Positions 1,491-16,733 of a DNA stretch of 43,680 nt are shown in pieces (the stretch's first letter is position 1; each line of letters begins with the position of its first letter). The position numbers were made by a program, and so were the translations under genes. Below the pieces are notes generated by a model. That model saw only the letters and a list, made by a program, of their open reading frames with translations. It did no database searches and was not told where the DNA came from. Origin of the DNA: Victivallaceae bacterium (GTDB lineage Bacteria > Verrucomicrobiota > Lentisphaeria > Victivallales > Victivallaceae). The DNA is taken from the NCBI GenBank assembly GCA_045648225.1, contig JAZRNP010000059.1, positions 1 through 43,680 on the forward strand. The letters are read 5' to 3'.

Positions 1491-2315
1491 TTATCGTCTG
1501 GCTCCGCGGTAGCCGCCGCCACCGCCCTGATTGCTCTGGATGGTGCGCTGCATTTGCTGCATGGTGCGCATCATCTGTCCCTGCATTATCATCTGGGCCT
1601 GCTGGAACTGCTGGGTGGAATTCATTCCGGGACGGCGGCCGTTGTTGCCGCCTCTGTTGTTGCGGTTACGGGAGGGTTCCTGAAGCTCCAATTCGATGCG
1701 GTCGTTGCCACGGATCAACGTGGCTCCGGTGCGGGTGACTTCGGCAAGGGTGTAACCGTTACTCAAAGTTTCGCCGACTTTGACATATTGTTTTTCGGCA
1801 CCGGAACTGCGTCCGGCGACCTGACTCCAGCTGGTGAAGCGTCCGTTGCCGCCCCGATTACCCATCATGCCACTGCGATTACCCATCATGCCGCCCCGGT
1901 TGCCCATCATGCCACCGCGATTACCCATCATGCCGCTCTGGAACATCATCTGGGCGAGATAGGGGTTGAATTGGCGGTTCTGGTTATTCTGACGGATGAT
2001 CGCGCCTTCGCTTTTGCCGCACCGGAAGATTCCGACCAGAGTCAGCTGGGTTCTGGAACTGCGGACATTGGCAAGAGGACTGCGGATATTATTGAAAACA
2101 TCGTGCGCAATGACCTTTTTTGCCGATTCATCGATATCGGCAAGCGGAACCACTCCGGAACGCTTGGTGCTGTCACTCTTTGAGGCTTTGGGCAGCGGCA
2201 GGAGTTTGAGCTGAGTGCCGGAATTTTTTTTGCTGTGTGCGGCGATATTTTTGGAAAATCCCCACAAAAGGACAGCTCCGAGGATGACATTGAGTGCGAT
2301 CAACCATTTTCTCAT
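1491..2315 (-). CDS. GspC/PilP-like assembly protein with Met-Gly-Asn-Arg heptad repeats and a Q/M-rich tail
   Basis: 274 aa with an ATGA overlap onto the upstream gene and SD AGAGGTG. N-terminal TM helix WLIALNVILGAVLLWGF, then about 4.5 x MMGNRGG. The beta-rich segment 'KQYVKVGETLSNGYTLAEVTRTGATLIRGNDRIELEL' resembles a GspC/PilP HR domain. It lies directly upstream of the secretin gene. Confidence 0.5.
   Translation of the reverse strand: MRKWLIALNVILGAVLLWGFSKNIAAHSKKNSGTQLKLLPLPKASKSDSTKRSGVVPLADIDESAKKVIAHDVFNNIRSPLANVRSSRTQLTLVGIFRCGKSEGAIIRQNNQNRQFNPYLAQMMFQSGMMGNRGGMMGNRGGMMGNRSGMMGNRGGNGRFTSWSQVAGRSSGAEKQYVKVGETLSNGYTLAEVTRTGATLIRGNDRIELELQEPSRNRNNRGGNNGRRPGMNSTQQFQQAQMIMQGQMMRTMQQMQRTIQSNQGGGGGYRGARR
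1848..1949 (-). repeat. 21-bp in-frame tandem repeat (4 full units plus 1 degenerate) encoding MMGNRGG heptads
   Basis: Plus-strand units gccgccccgattacccatcat / gccactgcgattacccatcat / gccgccccggttgcccatcat / gccaccgcgattacccatcat begin at 1848, 1869, 1890 and 1911. Confidence 0.9.
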
Positions 2316-3064
2316 TTGTTCACCTCTGTACTATTTTTTGCTTCTTCAGTTCTCCGGCCATGCCGGATCTGGCGCATTTTGGCGGCAGCTTCCCGGTCAA
2401 GTTGAGCCAGACTGGGGCGGGTGATCTGTAAGGCCCGGGGAGAGAGGGGGCCGTCATAACACAGCACCCGCAGGGCACCGTTGAAATTCAATCTGGTCGG
2501 CGGCACTTCCAGCCGGGTGGCCAGATTTGAGGCTCCGACGCCGGTGTTGCGGCGGAAACGGTAATCCGGCCGCAGATCCAATCTGCGCCAGCTCAAAATC
2601 GGTTCGATCTTACGCAATGCTGCGAGCAGATTTATGACATCGGCAATATCACCGGAACCGTTGATGTCGATTTCCGCATAGTAAAATTCGGTATTGACTC
2701 TGCCGGTGCGCACTGCGCCGATACCATTGAGCCGGAACTGTCGGGCAGCAGCAATATCGCCGATTCGACGCCGCAAAGTAGTTTCAACTCCGCCGTCATG
2801 ACTGGTGATCCAGGAAGCGGCAGCGAGATTGCGGTACTGTTGTTTGACCTTGGCCATTTCCCGTTTTTCGGCGGCGTATTTTTCGTACTCTTTTTTCTGA
2901 CGGGCGAGCTCTTTTTCCGCTTTGGCGATTTTTTCAGCGTTGGGTATGTTTTTAAGGAAGGACTTCCCGAGGGTGAAAAACAGGAAAATCTGACTCAGCA
3001 CCAACAGGATGCATACGGCGATCAGCTGACCTTTGCGGGTTTTCAATGCGTCACTGATATTCAT
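2312..3064 (-). CDS. PilO/GspM-like bitopic inner-membrane assembly protein
   Basis: 250 aa with ATGA overlaps at both ends. One N-terminal TM helix, a coiled coil (KAEKELARQKKEYEKYAAEKREMAKVKQQY), then an alpha/beta periplasmic domain. The call rests on architecture and operon context only. Confidence 0.45.
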   Translation of the reverse strand: MNISDALKTRKGQLIAVCILLVLSQIFLFFTLGKSFLKNIPNAEKIAKAEKELARQKKEYEKYAAEKREMAKVKQQYRNLAAASWITSHDGGVETTLRRRIGDIAAARQFRLNGIGAVRTGRVNTEFYYAEIDINGSGDIADVINLLAALRKIEPILSWRRLDLRPDYRFRRNTGVGASNLATRLEVPPTRLNFNGALRVLCYDGPLSPRALQITRPSLAQLDREAAAKMRQIRHGRRTEEAKNSTEVNK

Positions 3065-4311
3065 TTTTTCACCGCCTTGGGATCATTGCTTTTTTTGTTC
3101 GGGACGAGTTTCAATGTGATGGTCGCCACTGCGCTGTCCCCGGTTTGACGCTGCTGCAGTTGACCGATTTTCCAATAACCCAGCGGATTGATGATCCTGG
3201 GCAGATCCAGTTTTGCATCTTCACACTGGAGAACCATGTCGATGCCGCTGTCACTCCAACGGATGCTGGAAACCAGAACATTGCCGGGCAGGGCGTTGGA
3301 GAGCAGGGCGAATTTCTGAACGACATCGGGATCTCCGGCACCGGATTCGATGACCCGTTCCATCTCTTTCTGCTCTTTCTGCAATCGTTTGGAATTGCGT
3401 CTTGCCGAATCAATATCCCGTTTCAGCTTTTTATTTTCATTTTGTAAAGTGCGGTAACGGCTGTAGTCGGCTCCCCAGGTTCTGCCGAAGTGCCACAGAA
3501 TGTTGATTCCGATAAGAATAAGCAGCAATGTGGTGACGATCAGGTGTCCGCGGTAGCGTACCGGGCGGAGTTTTTCCGGCAGGACTGCTAAAGAGTTCCG
3601 GTTCCGTTCAAATTTTCCGCAGGCGATCATCCGGGCGATGAGCAATATGGGCAAGATGCCGGAGAATCCGGTTCCGTTCTTGTATTCATCCGGGATGATG
3701 ATAAATTTACTGATGACACTCTGCCAGGCTTCATTACCGGACTCTGCCTCCGGGGCACTGACCGGATTCCATGCACCTTTGTCAAAAGCGAATCCAGGTT
3801 CGATTTCGGGGATAAAGAGTGCCGGATCATCGGGGTTAACCGCCAGAAACGGATAGATGAAACCATCTGCCCGGCAGCCACTTTGAGTCATCTTTGCGCT
3901 GACACCGTTCAGAGAGCTCTCGTCAAAAACGTATACACCGACAGAAACCTGCAGATCATCTCCGGCAGGACTGGCGGCAAATTGGAACATCCTTTTTTCC
4001 GGAATATTCATCAGGTGGCGCGGCAGTTCGAGTTCCACTGCGCCCCGCTGCTCCCGGCTGGGAAGATCTGCGGATTTGAATTGGAAAAATACTCCGTCCG
4101 GCAAAGAACCGGTCAACAACAGCAGACCATCCCGGTGTTGAATTTCCTTGAGGATATTTTTCCAGGTTGCAGCCGGGTTTTCCCTGTTCAGTTCTGCTGA
4201 AGCAAAGCGGGACATTTTCCACTGTTTGTCGACACGCTCAAACCGTGCTCCCCGCACCGTGTCCGGTGTGAAAAACAGCACCGCAAAATTTTTTGTTCCG
4301 AGTAACTCCAC
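3061..4311 (-). CDS. GspL-like / fused PilM-PilN-like assembly platform protein
   Basis: 416 aa with a GTG start. A cytoplasmic domain of about 230 aa is followed by a single TM helix (LIVTTLLLILIGINILW), a coiled coil (NENKKLKRDIDSARRNSKRLQKEQKEMERV) and a periplasmic domain of about 90 aa. Operon context supports the call. Confidence 0.5.
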   Translation of the reverse strand: MELLGTKNFAVLFFTPDTVRGARFERVDKQWKMSRFASAELNRENPAATWKNILKEIQHRDGLLLLTGSLPDGVFFQFKSADLPSREQRGAVELELPRHLMNIPEKRMFQFAASPAGDDLQVSVGVYVFDESSLNGVSAKMTQSGCRADGFIYPFLAVNPDDPALFIPEIEPGFAFDKGAWNPVSAPEAESGNEAWQSVISKFIIIPDEYKNGTGFSGILPILLIARMIACGKFERNRNSLAVLPEKLRPVRYRGHLIVTTLLLILIGINILWHFGRTWGADYSRYRTLQNENKKLKRDIDSARRNSKRLQKEQKEMERVIESGAGDPDVVQKFALLSNALPGNVLVSSIRWSDSGIDMVLQCEDAKLDLPRIINPLGYWKIGQLQQRQTGDSAVATITLKLVPNKKSNDPKAVKK

Positions 4312-4341
4312 CTTTTACACCATTATTTTGAAAGAGTGATC

Positions 4342-5025
4342 TTATTTTTTTCCAGAATCTTTATTCATGCGTTTCATCATATCAGTCAACAGCTGGCGGG
4401 CCTTGGCCGGATCCTGCTGGCGCAGTGCGTCATACTGTTTCATCTCTTCGGGGTATTGGGCCCGGAGCTTCCGGAAATCCGGACGCATAATGTCACGGTT
4501 GCTGCTGGGAACTTCCCGGTTGCGTCCCTCGTTCATGCTGATTTTGCGCTGGGGAATGAGTACAATATTTTTGGCTTTGGCAAGTTCAAGCAGCTTGGTG
4601 ATACCGGTACGGGGATCTGCTTTGACTGCTTTCATTGCAGCGTCGTATCCGGCGGTATCTGCAAGGCGCAGTTTGATCAGGTTGCATTCCAGAGAAGTTT
4701 GCAGTTCAACTCCGGATTTTTTAGCCAGATCAGCATATTTCTGCTCCGTTTCGAGCATTATTTTGTCCAATGCGGTGCTTTCTGCCGGGAATTTTTCCCG
4801 GATCGATTCAAAAGCGATGATACGCTGAACACTTCCCATGAGGCGCATGGATTCCATCATATTTCTGCGGTCACCGCGCATATTTCCTCTGCCGCCGCGC
4901 ATATCGCCACGTCCGCCTCGGAAGTTCTGCCATTGTCTGGGGGCAGGAGGAAGATCAGTTTCTTCTGCGATGACGGCAAAAGCTGAGAGGATGAATGAAG
5001 TCAGTAAAGCAAAAAATTTATACAT
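4342..5025 (-). CDS. Secreted alpha-helical protein with RGG/Met heptads; function unknown (a Spy/CpxP-like periplasmic chaperone is only a guess)
   Basis: ATG 5025 is preceded by AGGAG. Signal peptide MYKFFALLTSFILSAFAVIA. 'RGGRGDMRGGRGNMRGDRRNMM' is followed by a K/E/Q-rich helical sequence. It lies 30 bp upstream of the gspL/pilM-like gene on the same strand. The longer ORF-track start (5100) lacks an SD. Confidence 0.6.
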   Translation of the reverse strand: MYKFFALLTSFILSAFAVIAEETDLPPAPRQWQNFRGGRGDMRGGRGNMRGDRRNMMESMRLMGSVQRIIAFESIREKFPAESTALDKIMLETEQKYADLAKKSGVELQTSLECNLIKLRLADTAGYDAAMKAVKADPRTGITKLLELAKAKNIVLIPQRKISMNEGRNREVPSSNRDIMRPDFRKLRAQYPEEMKQYDALRQQDPAKARQLLTDMMKRMNKDSGKK

Positions 5026-5337
5026 AATTTTACTCCTTGAATGGTGTTGCCATATCCCTTGCATATCTTTGCTCTGTCCTCTTGAAACAAGGACATCCAC
5101 ATCCTTTTAACGCAACACCCTCCGGATTTATTCTGCTTAAAACAAATTAAATTGCGATTCAAAACCGTAAACATAACTAATCAATTATATACAATAACGC
5201 ACAAAACGCCGGATGTCAACCGGGTAAACCCTTTTTTCAGCGTTTTTTCCCGAAAAAGAACAAATCACAAAGGAGCGATTTTTACGGGTAATGGGCAAGG
5301 TGAATCAATGAGGAGACCGGATGGAGTGATTGTCCGG

Positions 5338-5386
5338 AAATAAAAAGGACTGCGGCATCCCCTGTTGAGAGGTTATGCAGCAGTCT
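5338..5386 (-). terminator. Rho-independent terminator closing the phage-like operon
   Basis: The minus strand reads GACTGCTGCAT-N16-ATGCCGCAGTC (10/11 bp stem) followed by CTTTTTATTT, starting 18 nt after the TerL stop. Confidence 0.65.
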
Positions 5387-5403
5387 TGAAATATAGTTGC
5401 GGC

Positions 5404-6666
5404 TTATGCCAGAATAAAACGCTGTCCGGAATCAGACAGTTCGGTCAATGCCCAGACCAGCGCATCCATCCGGTCCGGACTGTGCCGGGATGTCCCCGGT
5501 GCGAATCCGGTCATCTCATCTTCGAGTTCCGCAAATTCGCCGACATGATGTACCCGTCCTTTTTCATAGAGGGCGGCTATCGGCTCGGCCCGGGTCAGCT
5601 TGCCCCGGGTGGCCCGAACCGGACGGAAACTTACATCCGGATCGAACTTGCGGAGCAATGCTTCGATCAGATCGCCGCCGTTGTTGACTTCTCCGGTGAC
5701 CCGGTCGGCTCCCAGTGAGTGGTAAAGGGCGATCACCTGCTTGGCCCATTCCAGAGGAGTTCCATGCATGGAGTTGTCCGCAAGTACATAATAATCTCCG
5801 TCGCAGCCGTATCCGGCGGCGATGATCCCGGTGCGGTCGCTGTTGTCTCCGGAACTTACTGCCGGATCGACTCCGATGACGATACGTTGGAGTTCGGGCG
5901 GTGTGACTACCCGGAAAGGGTCGATCATGTTGCGTTTCCAGAGGGCACCTTCGACTTCATCGAGGAATTTTCCCTCGAGGAAACGCTCCCGCTGGCGGCG
6001 GGGGAGTCCGGCGAGAGTATTTTCAATGTATCCCGGAGGCAGATTATCGACATTGTCCAGTGGATTGATCCGCATGGCAGCGTAATTGCCGGGAATTTTC
6101 AGCGGCAGATTGTCGACCGGATCGATTTTTTCGACAAAGACCCGATAGGTCCAATGTTTTTTTCCGGGCGGGTTGCAGTCAAAGAGAGCCTTAGCGTCGA
6201 GCGGCGGGATTTTCTGGGCGAGCCGGGTGACTGCAGTCTGAACGCTGGAATAATCCAGTTCGGAACACTCATTGAAGTAGACCGTGACAAATTCTTTGCC
6301 GAGAATTTTATCTGCCCGGGAATCATCATCCAGCCCGATCAGCCATATTTCGGAACCGTTGCCGAATGAAAATACTCCTTCTGTTTTACGGTATTCGCAG
6401 TCGATGGCATCGTGAAATCTCTGCCTGAGCACTTTGGGCAAAGTATCGGCCCCGATGGTGCTGCGTACCGAATTGGCATAACGCCGGATGACTGCATGAC
6501 GGGAACCGGGAGCACGCAGGGCCCTGATTACCAGAACACAGCAGAGCAGAAAGGTCTTGCCGGAACGGGAACCGCCGAAAAGCATGATATTCCGGCTTTT
6601 TCCGGAGATCAGTTCCAGAGCCTTTTGCTGGGCAGCGGTATATGAAAAATTTTCACGGTCAGACAT
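5404..6666 (-). CDS. Phage terminase large subunit (PBSX/XtmB-like)
   Basis: 420 aa. Walker A 'LFGGSRSGKTF', Walker B-like 'IWLIGLDD', and a C-terminal RNaseH-like nuclease segment 'IVIGVDPAVSSGDNSDRTGIIAAG'. Confidence 0.85.
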   Translation of the reverse strand: MSDRENFSYTAAQQKALELISGKSRNIMLFGGSRSGKTFLLCCVLVIRALRAPGSRHAVIRRYANSVRSTIGADTLPKVLRQRFHDAIDCEYRKTEGVFSFGNGSEIWLIGLDDDSRADKILGKEFVTVYFNECSELDYSSVQTAVTRLAQKIPPLDAKALFDCNPPGKKHWTYRVFVEKIDPVDNLPLKIPGNYAAMRINPLDNVDNLPPGYIENTLAGLPRRQRERFLEGKFLDEVEGALWKRNMIDPFRVVTPPELQRIVIGVDPAVSSGDNSDRTGIIAAGYGCDGDYYVLADNSMHGTPLEWAKQVIALYHSLGADRVTGEVNNGGDLIEALLRKFDPDVSFRPVRATRGKLTRAEPIAALYEKGRVHHVGEFAELEDEMTGFAPGTSRHSPDRMDALVWALTELSDSGQRFILA

Positions 6667-6668
6667 GG

Positions 6669-7214
6669 TCAGTTTTCTGCAGCGGCCTGTTTGCTGCGGT
6701 TGCGCATGAATCGCTGACGTCCGCTGGAAAGTTTATACATGGTACTTTTGAGCAGAGCGGTCAATTCCGGACGGCTGGCGATGACATCCAATATTTTCCG
6801 GTGCATCGCCTGCCGGGAACAGCCGTGCATTTTGCCCAGATGAGATACGGTGCAGCGTTTTACAGAACGGTCTGCCGGAGAGATGATTTCGCAGATTATT
6901 CCCACGGTGTAGTCATCCAGTTCCAGCAAAAAACGGAAAAAACGGCTCAACATGGGAATCAGATCGGTGTATTGGCAATCATCAGTTGCATTTCCCGGTA
7001 TATGAGTGAAATCGGCACATTCCGGCAGCCAGCTGTGAATTTCCTCATAACAAACGAGTTTGCTTCGGCTGTTGACCGAATTTTCGGTGGCGGCACAATA
7101 ACTGCAGGCCTGACGGTATTCGCATTTCAGACAACGTTCGGTACGGCAATCTGGTTTGCCGAAACAAAAGGTGTAAGAATGATGTTTCTCCATAATCTTT
7201 TCCTTGAATATCAT
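6669..7214 (-). CDS. Cys-rich (putative metal-binding) protein with a C-terminal HTH, immediately upstream of TerL; function unknown
   Basis: ATG 7214 forms an ATGA overlap with the adaptor stop (alternative ATG 7193 has an AAGGA SD). Cys cluster 'CFGKPDCRTERCLKCEYRQACSYC'. HTH-like 'CTVSHLGKMHGCSRQAMHRKI'. Its stop lies 2 nt before the TerL ATG. Confidence 0.6.
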   Translation of the reverse strand: MIFKEKIMEKHHSYTFCFGKPDCRTERCLKCEYRQACSYCAATENSVNSRSKLVCYEEIHSWLPECADFTHIPGNATDDCQYTDLIPMLSRFFRFLLELDDYTVGIICEIISPADRSVKRCTVSHLGKMHGCSRQAMHRKILDVIASRPELTALLKSTMYKLSSGRQRFMRNRSKQAAAEN

Positions 7215-7540
7215 CCCCGCAGCAACGGACATACTGCCGGGAGTTCCGGTTCCGGAGTGAACCATGCTCTGGCCCGGGGTGAAATATGATTTACATTCTC
7301 ATCGGTGGTGTTGCCTGCAAGAATGTTCGGATTCAGCAGCAGATATGCAGCCTGTTCAAATACTGCACAGCGGATGACACCGGAGACCGGTTCCGGCAGG
7401 GCTTCAATATTCAGCATTGCGGCGATATCCCGGGATGCAGTCTGTACCGCCGCCAGACGTTTTTCGTCAGGGAAAGCTGAAAATTCATCTTTGAGCAAAT
7501 GAGCGGCAAAAAAATCGTCGGCATCTTTTAATGTCAGCAT
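7211..7540 (-). CDS. Head-tail adaptor/connector-like protein (gp6-type), assigned mostly by position
   Basis: 109 aa with an AAGGA SD. A small acidic helical protein that is the first gene after the MCP. Its N-terminus 'MLTLKDADDFFAAHLL...AAVQTASRDIAAML' resembles gp6-like connector proteins. Confidence 0.4.
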   Translation of the reverse strand: MLTLKDADDFFAAHLLKDEFSAFPDEKRLAAVQTASRDIAAMLNIEALPEPVSGVIRCAVFEQAAYLLLNPNILAGNTTDENVNHISPRARAWFTPEPELPAVCPLLRG

Positions 7541-7627
7541 AGATTTTTCCTTGAAGTGGTGGTTTCTTTAAGTAGTGTTACGAGCGGCGGGAGGGGCGAC
7601 CAGATGGGTGCCGATCAGTCGGGAACC

Positions 7628-7660
7628 GGTAAAAGTTTCCCGGCAGACAGAGCTGCCGGG
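7628..7660 (-). terminator. Hairpin/partial terminator just after the major capsid gene
   Basis: The minus strand reads CCCGGCAG-ctctgt-CTGCCGGG (8-bp stem) followed by AAACTTTTACC, 17 nt after the MCP stop. The T-tract is weak, so an attenuator is more likely than a full stop. Confidence 0.4.
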
Positions 7661-7676
7661 AGGGATTCAGAACCTT

Positions 7677-8831
7677 TTACGCATTACGCAATGCGGCAAT
7701 GGCTTCGGTGCTGGGCATCAGATTTTTGATGCGGCAACAACGCTGGGCGGCATTGCGGAATTCAAAGGTGAGTTCGCCGATGGCGACCCGGCGGATTCCG
7801 TCAAAACCTTTGGGAGTGGCATCGGTGTCGGTGATACCGCGTCCGGCGAGGTTGGAGAGCGCAAAGCACTGGGGATCGAGGATCCAGGCATCGCAGTCGG
7901 GCACATCCGGATCAGCCATGATGGTCATGCCGCGTCCGTTGATCTCATTGACGATGACGGCAACGTAGGCTCCGCGGCGGTCATCGGAACGCAGGATCTG
8001 GATCCGGTCACGGTATTCATTGGAGATGACCCGGGCCTGTCCGGGAGAGCAGAGGATCTGCATGGGATCACCGCCTTCGCCGAGGACTTTCTGGGCAGCA
8101 TCATTGATGGAGAAGCTGTCCAGACGGGTTTTTCCGGCGTCGATGACCAGCGAATTTTCTCTGGTACCGAAGCAGTACAAACCGCCGGCTTCACCGAGGA
8201 CTCCGGGAGCGGCTTCCACCCGGCGGCCGAAGAGGGCGACCCGGTTGAGATCACGGGCGAGTTCGGAGAGGGCAAAGGCGGTCTGGCGGTTGAGCTGATT
8301 GTCGGCACTGCCGTTGAGTGCGACGGCAAGAGAACTGCCGGAGATGACGATTTCTTTACGGAAGATCTGGGTGGCGTTCCATTCCACGCTGCTGCATTTG
8401 CCGGTTTCGTCGCCGTCGCCATTGGCACTGCCTTCATTCATCGGAGTGGAAACGATGATGAATTCCATCTTGTCTTCGAGGTCGCTGATCCCGGAGAGAG
8501 CGGAACCGTTGCCGGCTGCGAATTCGACGGCAACTTCCGTTCCGTTGACGGCGGTGATTTTGAAGAGGGCCGGATCTTCTTTTACAGCAATGAGCATTCC
8601 GGGAACCGCTTTTGCGGCATCGGCGGCACTGAGAGTCATGGCATTGCCGGAGATGGAGAGTGCGGTGAAACCACGGCCGGAGAGCTGATCTTCGACCCAT
8701 TCGTGTTTGCGCTGAACGGCGTTGCTGCCGACACGGAAATTGGAGATGAAGCGCGGTTCATCCTTGATGACCGTGGACATGATGTCGGAAAGATCACGTT
8801 TGGCATTGGCGAAGCTGTAGGTGTAGAGCAT
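7677..8831 (-). CDS. Major capsid protein (HK97-fold, DUF5309/SU10-like)
   Basis: 384 aa. The N-terminus 'AKRDLSDIMSTVIKDEPRFISNF...RKHEWVEDQL' matches my recollection of the DUF5309 capsid family signature. It sits in a portal-scaffold-capsid order. Confidence 0.75.
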   Translation of the reverse strand: MLYTYSFANAKRDLSDIMSTVIKDEPRFISNFRVGSNAVQRKHEWVEDQLSGRGFTALSISGNAMTLSAADAAKAVPGMLIAVKEDPALFKITAVNGTEVAVEFAAGNGSALSGISDLEDKMEFIIVSTPMNEGSANGDGDETGKCSSVEWNATQIFRKEIVISGSSLAVALNGSADNQLNRQTAFALSELARDLNRVALFGRRVEAAPGVLGEAGGLYCFGTRENSLVIDAGKTRLDSFSINDAAQKVLGEGGDPMQILCSPGQARVISNEYRDRIQILRSDDRRGAYVAVIVNEINGRGMTIMADPDVPDCDAWILDPQCFALSNLAGRGITDTDATPKGFDGIRRVAIGELTFEFRNAAQRCCRIKNLMPSTEAIAALRNA

Positions 8832-8865
8832 CTGTTTTTCCCTTTCTTTAGGATTGTTTGGGTGA

Positions 8866-9324
8866 TTAGATATTCTCCGCGGAGACGGAGTTGAGAGAAT
8901 TTACAATGCGTCCGATCCGGTCACATCCGGAGATGTTTCCGGCATGATTGTGCGGAATTGCTTCCGGGATCGGGTGGTTCGGGCCCGGCGTGATGCGGGC
9001 ATGGAAGCATCCGGGGGATCTGGCGGCGATTTCGTCGGCAAAAAGTTTTACTGCATCGCTGTCTTCGAGATCGATGTTGTGCTTTCTGGCGAGGAAATCG
9101 AAGTATTCCGGATCGGTACAGCCGGTTTCGGCGGCGATTTTTTCGATCCGGCAGCTGCGCCGGAGTTCCTGATGGCGTTCCTGAAGCTCAGCGTATTCAT
9201 TTTGAAGTCTGGCCAGCTCTTCTCCGGCAGAAAAGTCCGGATCAAAATTTTCCAGAGTGCACTGTTCTTCAGGAGAAAGTTCTTCTCCGGCGAGAGTCCG
9301 TTTGATAAGTTCTTTGATATTCAT
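8866..9324 (-). CDS. Phage scaffolding protein
   Basis: 152-aa acidic coiled-coil protein (EELARLQNEYAELQERHQELRR) between the portal and MCP genes. It has an ATGA overlap with the portal stop. Confidence 0.55.
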   Translation of the reverse strand: MNIKELIKRTLAGEELSPEEQCTLENFDPDFSAGEELARLQNEYAELQERHQELRRSCRIEKIAAETGCTDPEYFDFLARKHNIDLEDSDAVKLFADEIAARSPGCFHARITPGPNHPIPEAIPHNHAGNISGCDRIGRIVNSLNSVSAENI

Positions 9325-10703
9325 GCTTGTTCTTTCCGGTTGATTTCGTCAAAGATTTCCTGTTTGCATTTGATGTTGAGCGGTTCGACGGCGTTGAGCA
9401 ATTCGGTGGCGGTGTATCCCACGGCCCGGCGGAACGCATCGCCCATATCCAGCGAGGCCAGCTGGAGAAGTCCCGCAATGGCTGAATTGAGATCACGCAC
9501 TGCAAATTTGCGGTTGTAGATCACCTCCGGCACCGGAATATCCAAATCGTAAAGGTGCATTATTTTCCAGGCTTCCAGTTCGGATTGTTCCAGGAGATCG
9601 GCCCGGGCGGCGAGGAACTGGCTGACATTCTGGAAATCCCATGCCTTGGATTCTGCACTCTGATTGTTTCTGGAATTATTGTGCAGAGCCAGACCGACGA
9701 TCTCATACAGTTCCCGTTTGAGGTGCTCGTTTTCACTGCGGATGGTGGCCGTTTCCACTCCGGACGGGCTGATGTAGCGGCTGATACCTTTTTCGTCAAT
9801 TGATTCGATGATGGCTGCACTGCGGGCGACAGTTGCGGAAAAGTTTTCCGATTTATTTCCGGAAGAGTTCAGTTTTTGTGCGCCCCGGGCGAAACTTTCC
9901 GATACCACCAGCATCCCGAACATCTGTTTGACCGTATTCATCTGGGCCTCGGATTCATTGTTGAGGATCGCTTCACTGATATGCACCACATCTTCAAACC
10001 AGTGGCCGCAGTCGATACCGAAACCATCCGGCTCGGTGACTCCGATCAGCGGCACAACTCCGGTGAGGTTGATGCCGGAATCGATCTCTCTGATCCCATT
10101 CGGAGTCTGTTCGTATAAGTGCCAGGTCTCCCGGGTGAAGAGCCGCCGCCGCCGCAGTTTGACCGGAGGAGAAAACGGATCGCAATTGAGCAGCTCCTCT
10201 TCGGCACAGATCGCCCAGAGCAGACGGCCGTCGGGAGCGTATGCCCAGTCGGTAACCTGCAGCGGAGAAAGAGTCCGGACGCAGGGACGCAATCTTTCTT
10301 TACGAGCCCGTTCTACTGACGGTTTTCCTTCGAAATTCGGCATATCGACCGCTAGCCATGCCCTGCCGTAGACATTGAGCAGTGTCGAAAGTTGTCTCAT
10401 AACCTCATTGCAGCGCAGTCCGGAACGTCCCCAGTCTTCAACAAATCTGCAGTCGGCATTGCGTCGAACCGGGTCGATAGAAAGGACATACTGGGTGATT
10501 TTCTGAGCAATAGCCCGTGGATAGTTGAAGTAATATGCCCGCCGACGCCGTTCGGCAAATTCGATATCGATCTCCGAAACGTGCCGGATCAGAGCCTGAT
10601 CGATATAATTTTTGCCTCCGCAGTAGGCTGCACGGGAATTTTTCCAGCGGTTTTCATTGGCGGCGTATTCCGGATGCCGTCGGTAAAAGATGTAATTATT
10701 CAA
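9321..10703 (-). CDS. Phage portal protein (DUF4055-like)
   Basis: 460 aa with a TTG start 6 nt after a strong SD (GAGGAGA). The N-terminus 'YRRHPEYAANENRWKNSRAAYCGG...RRRAYYFNYPRAIAQKITQYV' resembles podovirus-type portal proteins. Its position before the scaffold and MCP genes agrees. Confidence 0.7.
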   Translation of the reverse strand: MNNYIFYRRHPEYAANENRWKNSRAAYCGGKNYIDQALIRHVSEIDIEFAERRRRAYYFNYPRAIAQKITQYVLSIDPVRRNADCRFVEDWGRSGLRCNEVMRQLSTLLNVYGRAWLAVDMPNFEGKPSVERARKERLRPCVRTLSPLQVTDWAYAPDGRLLWAICAEEELLNCDPFSPPVKLRRRRLFTRETWHLYEQTPNGIREIDSGINLTGVVPLIGVTEPDGFGIDCGHWFEDVVHISEAILNNESEAQMNTVKQMFGMLVVSESFARGAQKLNSSGNKSENFSATVARSAAIIESIDEKGISRYISPSGVETATIRSENEHLKRELYEIVGLALHNNSRNNQSAESKAWDFQNVSQFLAARADLLEQSELEAWKIMHLYDLDIPVPEVIYNRKFAVRDLNSAIAGLLQLASLDMGDAFRRAVGYTATELLNAVEPLNIKCKQEIFDEINRKEQA

Positions 10704-10730
10704 TTTGTTTCTCCTCGTGATATGGTTCGG

Positions 10731-11117
10731 TCAGAGTCCGGCTTCGACCGGAGTGAGCTGTACGGTCACATTTTTCCCGGATGATTTCTTCTTGCTTCCG
10801 GAATGTTTCCACCGTTTGGGGCGGCGATTTTGCAGCCAGAACAAAGCGGCGCGAACATCCGGAGCGATCTCTTTGCCATTGCTGTCTTCATATCCGGTGG
10901 CCCGTTTGAGCAGAGCTGCTTCGACCATATCATCGCACAGGGCGTTGCGGCGGCGGAACAGCTCATCCAGTTCCGGATATTGTTTGCGGTAACGGCGCAA
11001 GGTCGAAATTGATACTCCGAGGAATCCGGCAGCATCGGCGGTGCTTTTTCCTGAATTCAGCAATCTGGCAAGTTCCGGAAGTTTATTCCGGACGATCTCC
11101 TGATATTTTGTGTTCAT
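10731..11117 (-). CDS. Phage terminase small subunit (XtmA/P27-like HTH type)
   Basis: ATG 11117 is preceded by AGGAGA. HTH 'STADAAGFLGVSISTLRRYRK'. The C-terminal 'AALFWLQNRRPKRWKH' is typical of small terminases. The ORF-track start at 11177 lacks an SD. Confidence 0.7.
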   Translation of the reverse strand: MNTKYQEIVRNKLPELARLLNSGKSTADAAGFLGVSISTLRRYRKQYPELDELFRRRNALCDDMVEAALLKRATGYEDSNGKEIAPDVRAALFWLQNRRPKRWKHSGSKKKSSGKNVTVQLTPVEAGL

Positions 11118-11289
11118 TTTCTGGATATTCTCCTGCGGTTTTGGGAACTTTACACTCAAGCGCAGGATCGTCAACACATTTTCGGTTGTTTTCTTTGAGA
11201 ACTGCCATCAGACGGCCAAGACCGGCCAGTGAATAGATGTTGCCGGATGCTGAAAACAGGATTTTTTCTGCAGGATGTCGGTTTTTCAT
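11083..11289 (-). CDS. Small hypothetical protein at the 'Cro' position of the switch
   Basis: 68 codons, with the ATG 9 nt after GGAGA. It is the first ORF downstream of the leftward promoter and is divergent from the repressor. No recognisable domain. It overlaps the TerS start by 35 nt in another frame. Confidence 0.35.
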   Translation of the reverse strand: MKNRHPAEKILFSASGNIYSLAGLGRLMAVLKENNRKCVDDPALECKVPKTAGEYPENEHKISGDRPE

Positions 11290-11318
11290 GATGTTCTTTC
11301 TCCGGGATGAAATGTTTT

Positions 11319-11332
11319 TTGCGTTTGTGCAA
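11319..11332. promoter_or_regulatory. Operator-like site O1 (TTGC-N6-GCAA)
   Basis: TTGCGTTTGTGCAA lies in the 5' leader of the leftward transcript. It shares its outer half-sites with O2 and O3. Confidence 0.3.
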
Positions 11333-11382
11333 TAAAAAAATATTTATCGTCCTTTTTTTAATTAAGAGATGTCTAAAAAATC

Positions 11383-11410
11383 AATCTAATTGCATGGATG
11401 CAATTTTCAA
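11383..11410 (-). promoter_or_regulatory. Leftward (late/packaging operon) promoter with palindromic operator O2 filling its spacer
   Basis: The minus strand reads TTGAAA-N16-TAGATT. The spacer is AATTGCAT-CC-ATGCAATT (plus-strand 11388-11405), a palindrome with perfect 8-bp arms. Confidence 0.5.
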
Positions 11411-11453
11411 GGGGGTAAAAATGGTTTTTTTTAAAAAAAATTATGTGCTTTTC

Positions 11454-11482
11454 TTGCATGAACGCAATAGTCTGATTATATT
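11454..11482 (+). promoter_or_regulatory. Repressor-gene promoter overlapped by operator-like site O3
   Basis: TTGCAT(11454)-N17-TATATT(11477). O3 = TTGCATGAACGCAA (11454-11467) matches the O2 core TTGCATGGATGCAA at 12/14 positions. A perfect T8A8 palindrome (11425-11440) lies between O2 and O3. Confidence 0.5.
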
Positions 11483-11541
11483 TGAAGTGCCGGAAATCTG
11501 CCGGCATATAACAGTTGCAGTATGTCCAAAGGAGGAAAAGA

Positions 11542-12417
11542 TTGAAAATAGATGATGCACTCCGGGCCAAATTGGTCGAAGCTGTGGAAAAATCCGGAGG
11601 TGCAAAGGCATTCTCTTTGCGTTGCGGCATCAATCCTGCCAATATTTCCCGTTACCAGCGTGGTCTTGTTCACAGTATCAATGATGACAATTGGGAGAAA
11701 TTGGCACCTTTTCTGGGCATTAATCCCGGAGAGGGCGGCTTTGTTACCGACAATGAAAATGATGTTATCACGACCTCTCCGGAACTTACCGCCTTTATTG
11801 CCGACAGAATGAGATCACTCCGTATCCGCAATGTTGAGAAGTTGCGCAAAAAAATAAATTTCAGCAGCTACGAAATCCTCCGGCGTCAACTTTCCGGAAA
11901 GCTGAACTGGTTCGCCGATACCCTGTCCCGGGTTATGGAAGTTCTCAAAGTTGACGCTTCTGAACTGCCTTTAAGTGAAGCTGAACGCCGTCTGCTCGAT
12001 CATGCCGCACTGAAACGTCAGGGCAGTTTGACGATGAAAGTCCTGCCGGTACTCGGAGGCATCGAAAACGGGAAACTTTTTATCGACGGCAAGGTGCCGG
12101 TACCGTTGGATGATGACCGGGATCTCCGGGCCTTCCGTATTGCCGGCAGTGCGATGCAGCCGGTGCTGATGCCGGGAGATGTGGTCATTGCAGAAACGGT
12201 TGCATCATCCTATGCGCTTCCGGAAAATTCCCTGGTGGTGATCCGCTTCACCGATCAGGCGACCGGAGAGGAACGCTGGGCCTGCCGCCGCTGCCGTCAT
12301 TTGATCGGCTGCCCGTTGATTTTGAGCGGTGATGATTCTTCCGGAGAATTGATTCCGGTTTTTCCTGGGGATGTGATCTGGTGCGGTGTCATCCGCCGGA
12401 GGATCAGCGATTTCTGA
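11542..12417 (+). CDS. CI/LexA-like repressor: two XRE-type HTH segments plus a C-terminal S24-peptidase-like domain
   Basis: TTG 11542 lies 6 nt after GGAGG (the ORF-track start 11515 is also TTG but has no SD). HTH segments 'AFSLRCGINPANISRYQRG' and 'INFSSYEILRRQLSGK'. S24-like 'LRAFRIAGSAMQPVLMPGDVVIAE'. Confidence 0.75.
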   Translation: MKIDDALRAKLVEAVEKSGGAKAFSLRCGINPANISRYQRGLVHSINDDNWEKLAPFLGINPGEGGFVTDNENDVITTSPELTAFIADRMRSLRIRNVEKLRKKINFSSYEILRRQLSGKLNWFADTLSRVMEVLKVDASELPLSEAERRLLDHAALKRQGSLTMKVLPVLGGIENGKLFIDGKVPVPLDDDRDLRAFRIAGSAMQPVLMPGDVVIAETVASSYALPENSLVVIRFTDQATGEERWACRRCRHLIGCPLILSGDDSSGELIPVFPGDVIWCGVIRRRISDF

Positions 12418-12465
12418 TAAATTACGGAAGAATTTCCCTGACGACCGGCGGTTGCGGTAGTGATT

Positions 12466-12506
12466 TGCGGATATCGCTTTGAAAATATCCGCAACGATGC
12501 TATATT
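12466..12506 (+). promoter_or_regulatory. Promoter for the membrane-protein gene, overlapped by a perfect 10-bp inverted repeat
   Basis: TTGCGGATAT-N10-ATATCCGCAA (12466-12495) overlaps TTGAAA(12479)-N16-TATATT(12501). It lies 49 nt after the repressor stop. Confidence 0.45.
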
Positions 12507-12544
12507 AAACCGGAATTTGCAATCACCCCGGGGAAAGTCCGAAA

Positions 12545-13783
12545 ATGAATACATTGGGCAGAATATTGAGTAAGGCGTTGATGATGGTCGCTGTTTCAGC
12601 GGCGGCATCAGCTCTGATTTGTTTTGTCAATGCTTTTTTCATCCGTCCGGACAGTGAAAAAGAGGCCATTATTCAGCAGGAATTGGCAAGTAATTGTTAC
12701 CAGATCGAATCTATTTGCGAACGGATCGGATTGTGGGAAAAACGCATCGTTTCGATCCGGAACAGTCCGGCGTTGAATCAATTGCGTTACTCGCTTGCGG
12801 TCCCGGCATGGCAGGCCAAAATTACCGAATACCGGACGGTGACGCTTCCGGCGTTGGAGCTGAAAAAATTGCAGCTTCAAGCTGAATTGAGCGGATTTGA
12901 CCGGAATCTGACGGAGCGTTTTATCATAGTGTGCCGGGAAAAATTTTTATTACGGATGAGCGCGATTTTGATTTTTCTGCTGGCAATGCCGCTGGTGATT
13001 TCGCTTGTTGTCTACTTTGTAATTGCCCGTTTCGCAGAAAGAGTGTGTCCGTTTTACCTGCCAGATACGCCACAGACACCTTCCGGTGTGACCATTTCTC
13101 CTGCAACACCCTCTCTGACCGTCAAAATTTCCGGCAGAGAACACTTTTATTTGCGCCCGAATTGGTGCCGGGCCAAAAGCTCCATCACTGCAGCCACCCG
13201 TTTCATATGGAAAAAAAGTGCTCCGCTGGTGAGTTTTGCAGCTGATTTGTTTGAATTGATTGATTTTTCTGCTGACGGCGGAAGTTGCGGCGAATTCACC
13301 GTTACGCCGCCGGTGGAAAATCTGATGATCTCGGAAATATCCCTTGAAGAAAATTCTTCCATCATCCTCCGTCCCCGGCATCTGATCGGAGTCAGTGATG
13401 GGATCCGAATCAGAACCATCTGGGATTTTTCTCCGGTAAATATTATCTGCGGCCGGATCCGGCAGATCCAATTCTGCGGTAAAGGCAGAATTTTGATCGC
13501 CGGGGCGTGGGGGATTGAAGCCGGTGTGGTTTCCGGACACCCTCATGTTATCGAAGAGGAAATGATCGTTGCAGTTTCCGGAGATTCCGGTTACGCTCCA
13601 TTTCGCAGTGCCACCTGGTGGCACTATTTCCGGAAAAAATCTCCACTGTTCAATATCAGAATTCTCTCCGGCACCGTGATTTGTCAGAATCACCCCTGGG
13701 AATACCGCAAACCCAATGCGTCACTGCTGGAAAGATGCGTGAATTTTTTTCTGAATGCAGTGGGAAGTTTTCTCGGATTCTGA
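12545..13783 (+). CDS. Two-TM membrane protein with a coiled coil and a C-terminal beta-rich domain (AIM24/DUF124-like by eye; weak)
   Basis: 412 aa. Predicted TM helices at about aa 10-33 and 135-162 flank a coiled coil. The C-terminal ~230 aa ('GKGRILIAGAWGIEAGVV', 'IVAVSGDSGYAPF', 'FNIRILSGTVICQ') has the alternating beta pattern I associate with AIM24-family proteins. Confidence 0.55.
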   Translation: MNTLGRILSKALMMVAVSAAASALICFVNAFFIRPDSEKEAIIQQELASNCYQIESICERIGLWEKRIVSIRNSPALNQLRYSLAVPAWQAKITEYRTVTLPALELKKLQLQAELSGFDRNLTERFIIVCREKFLLRMSAILIFLLAMPLVISLVVYFVIARFAERVCPFYLPDTPQTPSGVTISPATPSLTVKISGREHFYLRPNWCRAKSSITAATRFIWKKSAPLVSFAADLFELIDFSADGGSCGEFTVTPPVENLMISEISLEENSSIILRPRHLIGVSDGIRIRTIWDFSPVNIICGRIRQIQFCGKGRILIAGAWGIEAGVVSGHPHVIEEEMIVAVSGDSGYAPFRSATWWHYFRKKSPLFNIRILSGTVICQNHPWEYRKPNASLLERCVNFFLNAVGSFLGF

Positions 13784-14440: not shown

Positions 14441-15556
14441 ATGAAAACGCATTTTGTCAGATTGCGGCATTGGTTGCCGTGTGCCGCCACGGTGGAATCC
14501 GCATCCATCGAACCCCTTAAAAACACCCCGCTTTTTTTGAGCGGCAACCGTGCCGCCTCGGGGGTGTCGCGCCCATCCCGTTGGTCGGGCTTGATCGAAC
14601 CCCTTAAAAACACCCCGCTTTTTTTGAGCGGCAAACGTGCCGCCTCGAGGGTGTCGCGCCCATCCCGTTGGTCGGGCTTGATCGAACCCCTTAAAAATGC
14701 CCCGCTTTTTTTGAAAAGGGGAGAGGGTTTGGGAGAGGAGAAAAACCTCTTTCCCCGTGAAAAAAAGTTGTCTTGTTCCCTCGCATACACATTTACTCTC
14801 ATAGAACTGCTGGTTGTAATTGCTATAATTGCGATTTTGGCGGCACTTTTGCTTCCGACTTTGCAGTCGGCCCGGGATCGGGGGCGGAGTACTAATTGCA
14901 TAAACAATATCCGTCAGATAACGACTGCAAATTTACTGTATTCGGAAGCTCAGAATGGTTTTCTGGTTCCGTATGCGACCGACATGATGGGGGCGAACCG
15001 TCACCGGTGGTGCGGCACGACATCGACATCCAGCAATTCCGGGAATGCCGAATACGATCCGACGGAATCTCCTCTGGCAAGTTACATTGGCGGAAGCGGC
15101 AAAATTTCCCAGTGCAATACTTTAAAAGATCCGCCGTTGAGTTTTGAAAAAAACTGCGGCGGATACGGATATAATGTGTTGGTGGGGACTCTGCTTCCGG
15201 GGGAATATTCCAACGAAGCCTATTCGGCAGGATTTATGCTCAAGCGGATAAAACGGACTTCTCAAAAGATCATGTTTGCGGATTCGGCGATTATGGTTGA
15301 TGCCAACGGCAACTGGAGTTCTTCGCCGAGTCACCATGGGTACAGTTCGGCACTCGAAGCCCCCGGGGGGAGCTGGCAGATGAATCCGACCATGCATTTC
15401 CGTCACAACCGCCATTCAGCGACGAGCTTTTGCGATGGTCACGCTGAATTGCTGCCGATGCTTTCGTCGGCTTACGGAGATGAACAGTATCTGCTGGGAT
15501 TTCCCTGCGAAAACGATGATGAAAACCGTGAAAAATATTTTGATCCCCGTTATTGA
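14441..15556 (+). CDS. Prepilin-type N-terminal cleavage/methylation protein with a C-terminal H-X9-DG motif (pseudopilin-like), with an extraordinarily long repeat-containing leader
   Basis: '[22 protein letters not shown]' and '[13 protein letters not shown]' (H-X9-DG, TIGR04294-type). The only in-frame ATG is 14441, giving a 117-aa leader that contains the 87-bp repeats. In-frame TTG alternatives exist at 14729 (5 nt after GGAG) and 14768. Confidence 0.8.
14507..14713 (+). repeat. 87-bp (29-codon) tandem repeat, 2 full units plus a partial third, inside the pseudopilin 5' region
   Basis: Units start at 14507, 14594 and 14681 (ATCGAACCCCTTAAAAACACCCCGCTTTTTTTGAGCGGCAA(A/C)CGTGCCGCCTCG(A/G)GGGTGTCGCGCCCATCCCGTTGGTCGGGCTTG). 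Each unit holds nested inverted repeats CACCCC...GGGGTG and GCGGCA-N4-TGCCGC. Both strands are open across it. Confidence 0.9.
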
Positions 15557-15558
15557 AA

Positions 15559-15807
15559 ATGAAAAATTTACTGATATATTTTTTTATTGCGGCAACTCTG
15601 GCTGCCGGGAGCGGATGCAAGGAAAATCTGCCTCCGGCATCGCCGGAAAAAACAGAAATACTTGAAACATTATTGCAATGCCGGAAGTGCCGGAAAACTT
15701 CCCGGATCAAGGAGTGCAAAAGAATAAATCAGGTTTTATTCAACTGTCCTCATTGCAATCAGGTAATAAATGCCGCAAAATCAAAAGTAAGCTCAAAAAA
15801 ACGATGA
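15559..15807 (+). CDS. Small lipoprotein-like zinc-ribbon protein
   Basis: ATG 15559 starts 3 nt after the pseudopilin stop. Signal peptide with 'LAAGSGC'. 'CRKC...(21 aa)...CPHC' zinc-ribbon pattern. Its stop overlaps the next ATG (ATGA). Confidence 0.6.
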
Positions 15808-16733
15808 ACATCCGCTTCAACAAAAACACCCCGCTTTTTTTGAGCGGCAAACGTGCCGCCTCGAGGGTGTCGCGCCCTTCCCGTTGGTCGGGCTTGATCG
15901 AATCTGATAAAAACACCCCGCTTTTCTTAAAAAGGGGTGAGGGTTTGGGAGAGGGGAAAAAACTCTTTTCCCGTGAAAAAAAGTTGTCTTGTCCCCTCGC
16001 ATACACATTTACTCTCATAGAACTGCTGGTGGTTATTGCTATTATAGCGATATTGGCGGCGATGCTGCTGCCGGCGTTGGGGAATGCCCGGGCGAGGGGG
16101 CGCAGTGCGAATTGTGTATCCAATTTGAGGCAGCTCGGGGTGATGCAGCAGCAATATACAGATATCTATTCAGGCTGGTATTGTCCGGCGTATTATATGG
16201 ATTCGAGTTATGCGATGGTGTACTGGGATTGGGCGAGTAATTCCGGGGGTACGGAGGATGAGGATGATTCCAGCGGTCTTCTGGCGAGGAGTTTGAACAG
16301 CAACGGTAAAACTTCGGAGGTGAATTCCTGTCCGGACAACCATCTGGACAAGAGCTGGTCGGCGCAAAATTCCGGTTACGGCTACAATGAATTTCTGGGT
16401 TTTGAGCCGGGACTTTATTCCGGGGTGAAAAATTCCTCATTGCGCCGGGCGGCATCGACGTTGATCTTTGCAGATGCATCGGCGATGGATTATTATGACA
16501 ACAGCAAATTGATACCGACTTCGGGACTTTACGCACCGGAGGGGCGAAAGGGTACTTTGCGAGGGGGCGGTTTGACCCATTTCCGGCATTTGAAGAGTGC
16601 CAACGGGGTATTTGCGGATGGTCATGCGGCTTCCACCCGGGAATTTCATGAAGGGAACAAGGGGAATGCGGCATTGCTGTCCGGATACTGGTCCAAAGAT
16701 AATTCAAACTACGATCCGGAGTATGATAAATGA
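15804..16733 (+). CDS. Prepilin-type H-X9-DG protein (pseudopilin-like), paralog of 14441-15556
   Basis: ATG 15804 sits in an ATGA overlap. '[24 protein letters not shown]' and '[13 protein letters not shown]' (H-X9-DG). The 74-aa leader holds one 87-bp unit plus the '[26 protein letters not shown]' element. Confidence 0.8.
15822..15930 (+). repeat. Second locus of the 87-bp repeat (1.25 units)
   Basis: AAAAACACCCCGC recurs at 15822 and 15909 (87-bp period). The unit is nearly identical to those at 14507-14713. Confidence 0.85.

Follow-up and report, generated by a model that had tools for sequence, protein, structure and literature searches.

How does a bacterial chromosome come to keep a set of genes that could make a phage head and load DNA into it, with no tail to deliver that DNA and no integrase to move it, and what would such a set be for? 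The question is raised by a block of some 7 kb in a 43.7-kb stretch of a Lentisphaerota/Victivallaceae chromosome from the gut (contig JAZRNP010000059.1; by the window we mean this whole stretch). At window positions 5339-12417, eight co-directional genes on the minus strand lie between a terminator and a switch region with three operators. We refer to this block as the cassette, and its predicted gene content would be complete for head assembly and packaging and hold nothing else. Comparison with its relatives shows that the cassette is a vertically inherited chromosomal gene set under purifying selection, and the best reading of its origin is that it arose from that half of a Victivallaceae siphovirus prophage which encodes the head. 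As to its function, the explanation that we prefer, tentatively and at a little short of an even chance, is that of a chromosomally fixed head-and-packaging module that would be completed in trans, packaging DNA in situ and receiving its tails from phages.

Gene identities were taken from the map of open reading frames (ORFs) and their translations, and then from Pfam and PHROGs profile searches. Reading away from the switch, the operon encodes a 68-aa ORF, TerS, a portal, a scaffold, a major capsid protein (MCP) of the DUF5309/SU10 type, a 109-aa protein, a protein with a Zn-ribbon and a helix-turn-helix (HTH), and TerL. Its features and the repressor gene that faces it are the following.

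11515..12417, plus strand: S24-type repressor, 300 aa (phrog_4, E=1.6e-9; weak HTH_26 match)
11083..11289, minus strand: first operon gene, 68 aa, with the motif SG.IYSLAGLxRL, at the same position in all clades
10731..11117, minus strand: TerS, 128 aa from ATG (phrog_309, E=7e-25; Pfam HTH matches, N-terminal HTH)
9321..10703, minus strand: portal, 460 aa (phrog_145, E=2e-38)
8866..9324, minus strand: scaffold, 152 aa (weak phrog_194 match, E=0.0045; position; phage homologues)
7677..8831, minus strand: MCP, 384 aa, SU10/DUF5309 (PF17236, E=7e-43; phrog_1328)
7638..7661, minus strand: GC-rich hairpin directly after the MCP stop (predicted 9-bp stem)
7211..7540, minus strand: 109-aa protein, candidate head-tail adaptor or connector (homology to the post-MCP gene of siphoviruses)
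6669..7193, minus strand: Zn-ribbon and C-terminal HTH protein, 174 aa (alignment; independent gene calls)
5404..6666, minus strand: TerL, 420 aa (Pfam Terminase_6N/6C and Terminase_3; phrog_979, E=1e-70)
5339..5385, minus strand: intrinsic-terminator-like hairpin followed by UUUUUAUUU, end of the operon (minimum free energy -39.4 kcal/mol)

A preliminary description of this locus had counted seven intact, co-directional genes; direction and intactness were borne out, but the count rises to eight with the 68-aa ORF at 11083-11289, which had been missed. Its capsid, portal and terminase assignments held in the profile searches (E from 7e-25 to 1e-70), and so did the hairpin after the MCP gene (9-bp stem) and the terminator after TerL (z=-3.6). 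Junctions between operon genes range from a 4-nt overlap, found between the scaffold start and the portal stop, to a 34-nt gap, with the exception of the 136-nt gap between the MCP gene and that of the 109-aa protein, which holds the hairpin. This hairpin is a possible attenuator; the whole 151-nt region around it is not unusually stable (z=-0.66). At the other end, the terminator hairpin and its U-run lie some 20-65 nt past the TerL stop (z=-3.62, with 0 of 200 shuffles as stable). The TerS ORF reaches a GTG at 11177, and the ATG start at 11117 is backed by orthologues and gene calls. Similarly, the ORF of the Zn-ribbon protein, Cys-rich and so called below, spans 6669-7265, and its probable start is the ATG at 7193, chosen also by independent gene callers, so that it probably does not overlap the gene before it. 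The scaffold is homologous to the pre-MCP gene of related phages, and TerL has an intact Walker A, 'YFNE' motif and nuclease aspartates, in common with the TerL of a bona fide Synechococcus phage.

Profile searches of the whole window (Pfam, PHROGs) found no tail, lysis, integrase, recombinase or replication genes, as the preliminary description had claimed. All other sizeable ORFs are either housekeeping or without a phage-like match in these searches, and include a pilus/secretin operon (16-5100), thioredoxin, LepA, TrpRS, GalK, LpxK, DapA and a PFL-like enzyme. The window holds no direct repeats flanking the cassette and no att-like sites, no inverted repeats were seen at the ends of the cassette, and no tRNA lies next to it, the sole tRNA being 12 kb off. 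A search for defence systems with PADLOC models gave zero matches.

The relatives of the cassette are metagenome-assembled genomes (MAGs) or metagenome contigs throughout, numbered here L001, L003 and so on, and in each of them 10 kb on each side of the locus was examined. The MCP has 698 homologues, the best 120 of which are 66-100% identical to it; among these 120, every one that bears an organism name comes from Lentisphaeria/Lentisphaerae MAGs. A scan of GTDB with one genome per species gave 105 relatives, 80 of which were retrieved, nearly all titled Lentisphaerota/Victivallaceae and the others 'uncultured bacterium' MAGs. The host is indeed, as had been proposed, a member of the Planctomycetes-Verrucomicrobia-Chlamydiae (PVC) group, within Lentisphaerota/Victivallaceae. 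Loci were assigned to classes by tblastn and ORF clustering, with further contexts from public assemblies. Class A, which has the arrangement of the window and nothing else phage-like, comprises 45 loci (the window, metagenome contigs and duplicates included) and represents about 39 different species-level Victivallaceae assemblies, each with a single copy; most are MAGs from gut or rumen samples, taken from sheep, goat, yak, roe deer, horse and human. Its boundaries are sharp and identical in about 40 loci, where housekeeping genes adjoin directly (RodA/PurA, FeoB, the NusA-IF2 operon, MoxR or the pilus operon). A tblastn search with the neck and tail proteins of the related phage L011 found no neck or tail gene within 10 kb of class A cassettes. 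In a Pfam survey of 150 flank ORFs from 34 loci, no integrase, recombinase, replicase or tail family recurred among the 25 most frequent families, which were all housekeeping families, a depth at which a rare integrase would escape; the Pfam tables of L001-L007 contain no integrase or recombinase.

The cassette is found in the same places in related genomes. Where the MCP is at least 80% identical to that of the window, the locus keeps the order MoxR, cassette, pilus operon; in the clade with MCPs 70-74% identical, the cassette adjoins RodA-PurA and/or the NusA operon. In pairwise comparisons the identities of cassette proteins rise and fall with those of the host proteins encoded next to them: between L007 and L024, 94% for the portal and 92% for the MCP against 91% for NusA and 96% for IF2; between L013 and L014, 89% for the portal against 91% for the secretin. 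With respect to L095, the closest relative found (MCP 92% identical), dS is 0.53-1.15 in cassette genes and 0.51-1.2 in pilus genes, and dN/dS is 0.045-0.18 in cassette genes, the 68-aa ORF excepted, versus 0.05-0.20 in pilus genes. Gene by gene, this ratio is 0.08 for the repressor, 0.05 for TerS, 0.045 for the portal, 0.16 for the scaffold, 0.07 for the MCP, 0.18 for the 109-aa protein, 0.15 for the Cys-rich protein and 0.09 for TerL. Four other pairs give 0.03-0.36 for every cassette gene, values that are approximate because dS in them is high and near saturation. One MCP variant present on 24 contigs from many samples always has an identical context, and a scan of metagenomes for empty sites, with a pilus gene as bait, found two loci, both with the cassette present. 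Synteny, single copy and a dS shared with the flanks thus identify a chromosomal gene set, and not an island that moves from site to site.

Within this stable context some local variation was seen. At least twice independently, the cassette alone is inverted between the same flanks: L013 versus L003, between MoxR and the pilus operon, and L082 versus L007/L025, next to RodA-PurA. The assemblies of L096 and L097, whose MCPs are identical to that of the window, both end some 130-150 nt inside the repressor gene. The flank on the repressor side is made up of a 412-aa membrane protein and thioredoxin in the window, and of MoxR in L095 (372-2803). The repressor-side junction (window 11515-12545) appears to be prone to rearrangement or to variation between strains. 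The 412-aa predicted membrane protein that adjoins the repressor (12545-13783, plus strand) has a weak AIM24-like C-terminal region; since other genomes do not keep it next to the cassette, it does not belong to the block. Farther away, several large proteins at 14441-16733 and 20935-21825, near the pilus/secretin operon, have internal or N-terminal prepilin-type N-methylation motifs, probably reflecting an expanded pseudopilin repertoire in the host.

The probable origin of the cassette is best seen in the three loci of class B (L010, L040 and L042), which are complete siphovirus prophages. They share with it the unusual order TerS, portal, scaffold, MCP and connector, then Cys-rich gene and TerL. 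A minor head protein stands between the connector and the Cys-rich gene, and behind TerL stand genes for head closure and neck, then a candidate tail tube, two ORFs of chaperone size and a tape measure; the cassette ends at the exact point where these neck genes begin. Identities to the window are about 59-62% for the portal, 63-67% for the MCP and 65% for TerL, and the unit formed by the repressor, the operators and the 68-aa ORF is absent directly upstream of TerS. The prophage L040 shares its MAG (CASFJW01) with the cassette L043. In simple neighbour-joining trees, portal and TerL give the same sub-clades; class A is monophyletic in the portal tree with class B outside, and in that of TerL, class B is nested close to L043, which may be due to an exchange of TerL or to an error of the tree. 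More distant are the siphoviruses L011 and L012, which have a tape measure, MCPs 58% and portals 52-53% identical to those of the window, and a different TerL placed after TerS. Related phage contigs measure 45-52 kb. The nearest cultured phages are remote, with 28% identity for the MCP (Bacillus phages) and 46% for TerL (a Synechococcus phage). No match was found in a scan of IMG/VR with peptide patterns drawn from the window MCP and suited to close relatives, and a search of a literature library retrieved no paper linking Lentisphaerota/Victivallaceae to gene transfer agents (GTAs), satellites or such a cassette. The comparison of the locus across genomes, which had been put forward as a check, thus yields a conserved cassette and complete sister prophages, but a window copy that is intact and not decaying.

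Other arrangements of the capsid genes exist in this phylum. A trio of scaffold, DUF5309 capsid and 109-aa-like genes stands alone between leuC/leuD and a P-type ATPase (L062:9416-11661, and likewise in L055, L059, L063, L068 and L081). It is syntenic in six Victivallaceae species, with dN/dS of 0.08-0.3, and has no portal or terminase within 10 kb, so that capsid genes can be conserved without a linked packaging motor. In marine and deep-sea Lentisphaerota (L072, L073, L080, which is CP071032 of strain zth2, and L058), capsid genes are followed by one or two genes resembling a tail tube (family c8), which in some cases carry a fused neck-like domain; the portal of L058 is about 7 kb from the MCP gene and on the other strand. 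Phage structural genes are thus dispersed or rearranged in these genomes. The profile of this one family c8, used to look for an unlinked tail tube, retrieved 15 proteins only and gave no sign of it in cassette genomes; those with an organism name come from the genomes of class C loci (the L072 and L080 assemblies).

How is the operon kept silent? The 337-nt intergenic switch is AT-rich (GC 0.43 versus about 0.51 elsewhere), faces, as the preliminary description had it, a CI/LexA-like repressor, which is of S24 type and on the plus strand, and holds three copies of the motif TTGC-N6-GCAA.

11453..11468, unstranded: candidate operator O1 (TTGCATGAACGCAAT), overlapping the candidate -35 of the repressor promoter, an overlap read from the sequence
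11389..11404, unstranded: candidate operator O2 (ATTGCATCCATGCAAT), a perfect palindrome that exactly fills the 16-nt spacer of the operon promoter
11319..11333, unstranded: candidate operator O3 (TTGCGTTTGTGCAAT), downstream of the operon promoter
11410..11383, minus strand: promoter-like site TTGAAA-16-TAGATT (sequence pattern), reading into the operon

The motif occurs two or three times at the switch position in nearly all repressor-bearing cassettes and is rare elsewhere. In the 46 loci with both portal and TerL (43 cassettes and the three class B prophages), it is enriched 124-fold at the switch, with 89 matches in 31 kb versus 19 in 824 kb. Operator motifs also lie upstream of TerS in L006 and L028, where tblastn finds no adjacent repressor homologue; a HTH_25/HTH_31 protein downstream of TerL in L006 may be an alternative regulator.

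The repressor consists of one or more N-terminal HTHs and an S24 (LexA/CI-like) C-terminal domain that aligns with LexA and lambda CI, and its orthologues in other cassettes match Peptidase_S24 (PF00717). In an alignment of 28 repressors with these two proteins, the catalytic Ser and Lys of the window repressor are replaced, GSAM and CRR standing where LexA has GMSM and VKR. L095 reads GHAM/CRR, and the dyad is also lost in six orthologues of the window clade (L003, L013-L016 and L041); clade orthologues read GDEM, GEQM, GDQM, GMMM or GTMM, with R or G instead of Lys. It is kept in 21 other cassettes as G(I/V)SM and CKR, while L036 keeps the Lys and not the Ser. Of the intact CI/LexA switch described earlier, the three operators stand, then, but the self-cleaving dyad does not, and a response to DNA damage by self-cleavage is not expected in the window. 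Conserved operators in this clade, together with the dN/dS of its repressor, argue for a protein that is working but predicted not to cleave itself. The loss of the dyad in one clade and its retention elsewhere fit induction by a trans-acting factor, as in the Stl repressor of Staphylococcus aureus pathogenicity islands (SaPIs).

Three of the proteins are less well characterised. The motif of the 68-aa ORF is found only in class A loci and never in related phages, and the gene is called in independent assemblies; its dN/dS against L095 is 0.84, a weak sign of selection at this short range. The family of the 109-aa protein comes directly after the MCP in loci of classes A, B and C and in true phages (cluster c2/ph121). 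Its AF2 model, built from an alignment of eight sequences (pLDDT 77), is all-helical, with four or five helices and a disordered C-terminus that has a conserved RG at its end. Foldseek comparison of the model with PDB and BFVD gave nothing below E=1, the 24 members of the family have no Pfam match, hmmsearch found no PDB match, and hhalign found no link with SPP1 gp15. A weak hhalign match (probability 43%, E=2.4e-4, 89 columns) connects it to gp09 of Bacillus phage KLEB27-1, whose gene opens the connector block that separates the MCP gene from an HK97-gp10-like gene. The Cys-rich protein has four invariant Cys (the Zn-ribbon), a DFDHIPG motif and a C-terminal HTH (SRQAMHRK). Some members of its family, the window copy not among them, have weak HTH-type Pfam matches, and the family profile retrieved noise only from PDB. 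In L009, L011 and L012 its homologue directly precedes TerS, and in classes A and B it precedes TerL, a spot where late activators or packaging accessory factors usually sit. It is a candidate late activator or DNA-binding packaging factor.

From these elements the following scenario can be drawn. At rest, the divergent repressor would sit on the three operators and silence the eight-gene operon. Its removal would let portal, scaffold and MCP be made and assemble into procapsids; self-cleavage being impossible in the window clade, an external anti-repressor is expected there, most likely from a phage. TerS and TerL would then cut the chromosome in or near the cassette and fill heads in situ, without excision or replication, as the lack of genes for either leads one to expect. 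The Terminase_6 and Terminase_3 families are typical of headful packagers (T4, SPP1, P22, PBSX), and to judge from the 45-52 kb of related phage contigs, each head might carry the cassette and tens of kb of neighbouring chromosome. The 109-aa protein would cap the portal, and neck, tail and lysis functions would come in trans, the likeliest source being a co-resident or infecting siphovirus of the sister lineage with homologous portal and connector. Delivered DNA could be rescued by homologous recombination, which would explain why an integrase is not needed. We infer that particles form, that they are filled by the headful mode and that transfer follows, and likewise infer the packaging start site, the inducer and the source of tails. 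Supply by a phage is favoured by the homologous portals and connectors, by the co-residence in one MAG, by the non-cleavable repressor and by the lack of a conserved unlinked tail-tube family (c8).

Several observations weigh against this scenario. The cassette lacks the head-closure and neck genes that follow TerL in the sister prophages, and without a helper to provide these functions, tail-less heads may fail to retain DNA. The role of the 109-aa protein as an adaptor is a reasonable proposal from its position and a weak assignment otherwise. A long vertical persistence with a host-like dS is not what is usually seen in a selfish satellite. Particles, packaged DNA and transfer are predictions from gene content, and unlinked tail and lysis loci, as in a GTA, may lie beyond 10 kb. 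The lack of the TerS HTH in one clade argues against an essential role of sequence-specific packaging. Finally, the repressor, TerS or a portion of the Cys-rich gene has disappeared from some lineages: the locus is eroded in L005 (7592-13285), with no repressor, no TerS and a truncated Cys-rich gene, and the Cys-rich gene of L025 (11729-12082) has no Zn-ribbon.

What else could the cassette be? It might be the head locus of a true GTA, host-regulated and packaging host DNA for the benefit of the population, whose tail, neck and lysis genes stand at other conserved chromosomal loci, much as the GTA of Rhodobacter capsulatus (RcGTA) is split over several loci. This we judge unlikely, though far from negligible. 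Vertical, single-copy inheritance with a host-like dS and strong purifying selection is what it would predict, and head genes are already dispersed in other Victivallaceae (the leuCD trio in six species, and L058 with its portal about 7 kb from the MCP gene). TerS is also suggestive. The RcGTA small terminase has no DNA-binding domain, and in L001, L007, L017, L018 and L025, whose MCPs are 70-74% identical to that of the window, TerS is 85-100 aa long and without the N-terminal HTH, a loss that parallels it; the window TerS, however, keeps its HTH. Moreover, the 10 kb on either side of about 40 cassettes hold no tail or lysis gene, the one tail-tube family tested (c8) is rare and was not seen in cassette genomes, and the switch is of phage type with no obvious host regulator. 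A 7-kb cassette would also fit in any head, while classical GTA clusters exceed head capacity. Alternatively, the host could have domesticated the cassette as an interference module, derepressed when a related siphovirus infects or is induced, so that its heads and terminase compete for necks and tails or package host DNA and lower the phage yield, with transfer as a by-product. Such a benefit to the host would explain vertical maintenance and purifying selection, a non-cleavable repressor suits the sensing of a phage protein, and homology of portal and connector with the sister phages would make the parts compatible. Yet we find this improbable: there is no similarity to PADLOC defence models, no interference gene can be identified, the proposal is wholly hypothetical, and the self-cleaving repressor of most clades points to the SOS response and not to the sensing of infection.

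The preliminary description had likened the locus to a capsid-forming phage-inducible chromosomal island (cf-PICI), and a canonical mobile satellite of this kind, with integrase and replication genes outside the stretch or supplied by a helper, has in its favour the related complete prophage in the same MAG as a cassette, and a head-only content without tail or holin that matches the cf-PICI hijacking module (PMC10085698). The likeness did not survive comparison: the cassette evolves with the chromosome and has none of the core genes for integrase, primase-replicase, HNH nuclease and protease, for which we reject membership. A mobile satellite with its integrase and replication genes elsewhere is very unlikely as well, with no integrase or replicase in the window and none recurrent in the flanks of 34 loci, no att-like repeats, no tRNA target, and housekeeping flanks that adjoin directly, share its dS and form a constant context across many samples. 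That an adaptor implies a tail, as had also been claimed, is still an inference, given that the 109-aa protein has no significant match to a family or fold and only a weak profile link to a siphovirus connector. As for an inert prophage remnant whose decay is still to come, to which we give hardly any credence, it would account for the absence of tail, lysis, integrase and replication genes and for the erosion in a few lineages (L005, L025). It would not account for eight genes and a repressor intact in dozens of species at a dS of about 0.5 to more than 1, with dN/dS of 0.03-0.36 for every gene except the 68-aa ORF, identical boundaries, conserved operators and intact TerL active sites; and misassembly or contamination is an unlikely source of conservation in more than 40 independent assemblies. 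The claim that this is not a decaying prophage therefore stands, resting on the same boundaries and order in about 39 species, on purifying selection and on conserved operators. A cryptic prophage already in decay was likewise considered and rejected, ORFs being intact and boundaries the same in about 40 loci, with minor erosion in L005 and L025 only.

The module completed in trans that we prefer has a bolder version, which we consider possible but doubtful. In it, the cassette would be a host-owned 'lateral transduction engine': the domesticated head and packaging half of a siphovirus, kept for tens of millions of years or more, that on derepression would package the chromosome in situ into tail-less heads and borrow necks and tails from unrelated or sister phages. 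If this were true, it would combine a GTA with a capsid-forming satellite and be without precedent among PVC bacteria, and related genera would hold versions that are still further reduced or scattered, the scaffold-capsid-connector trio being one. More generally, if DNA-filled heads are made, they would open a new route by which genes are transferred, or phages hindered, in a gut phylum that has been little studied, provide a natural test of tail piracy as a trait owned by the host, and offer a compact eight-gene system of capsid and packaging for study. Finders of satellites and prophages that need an integrase or score tails will miss such elements.

Among known systems, the cassette in its way of working comes closest to the hijacking module of a cf-PICI. 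SatelliteFinder defines cf-PICIs by 11 components, integrase and primase-replicase among them, and they have been reported in Proteobacteria and Firmicutes (PMC10085698). Like EcCIEDL933, for example, the cassette has its own TerS, TerL, portal and capsid protein and, as a candidate, a connector-like protein, has no tail, holin or lysis gene and bears its own silencing regulator; its particles would likewise be tail-less heads completed by helper tails. Unlike a cf-PICI, it lacks an integrase, a primase-replicase, an AlpA-type regulator, an HNH nuclease and a prohead protease, and has a scaffold instead; it measures about 7 kb, has no att sites, is inherited with the chromosome and belongs to Lentisphaerota. 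The known capsid-forming satellites are mobile islands with integrase and replicase.

With RcGTA-type elements the cassette shares a phage derivation, fixation in the chromosome, vertical descent, purifying selection and the lack of integrase and replication genes. However, the main RcGTA cluster contains head and tail genes whereas the cassette has no linked tail gene, and the cassette differs in its phage-type repressor with operators and in being small enough to be packaged whole. The class B prophages have the same gene order and add to it the minor head protein, head closure and neck, tail tube, chaperones and tape measure. The regulation of the window clade recalls SaPI Stl, which is derepressed by a protein supplied in trans, as is probably the case here; unlike Stl, the cassette repressor is of S24 fold, and the LexA/CI-like relatives from which it descends cleave themselves and are still active in other clades. 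PBSX-like defective prophages and tailocins are, like the cassette, partial sets of phage structural genes that have been domesticated and are controlled by a repressor of phage type, but PBSX makes complete tailed particles and tailocins keep tails only, while the cassette keeps the head and the packaging motor and is in this sense the mirror image of a tailocin. The known domesticated derivatives of phages are tails (tailocins and type VI-like systems), whole particles (GTAs and PBSX) or the capsid fold only (encapsulins). A family-wide head-plus-packaging cassette, fixed in the chromosome and without mobility, tail or lysis genes, fits none of these kinds.

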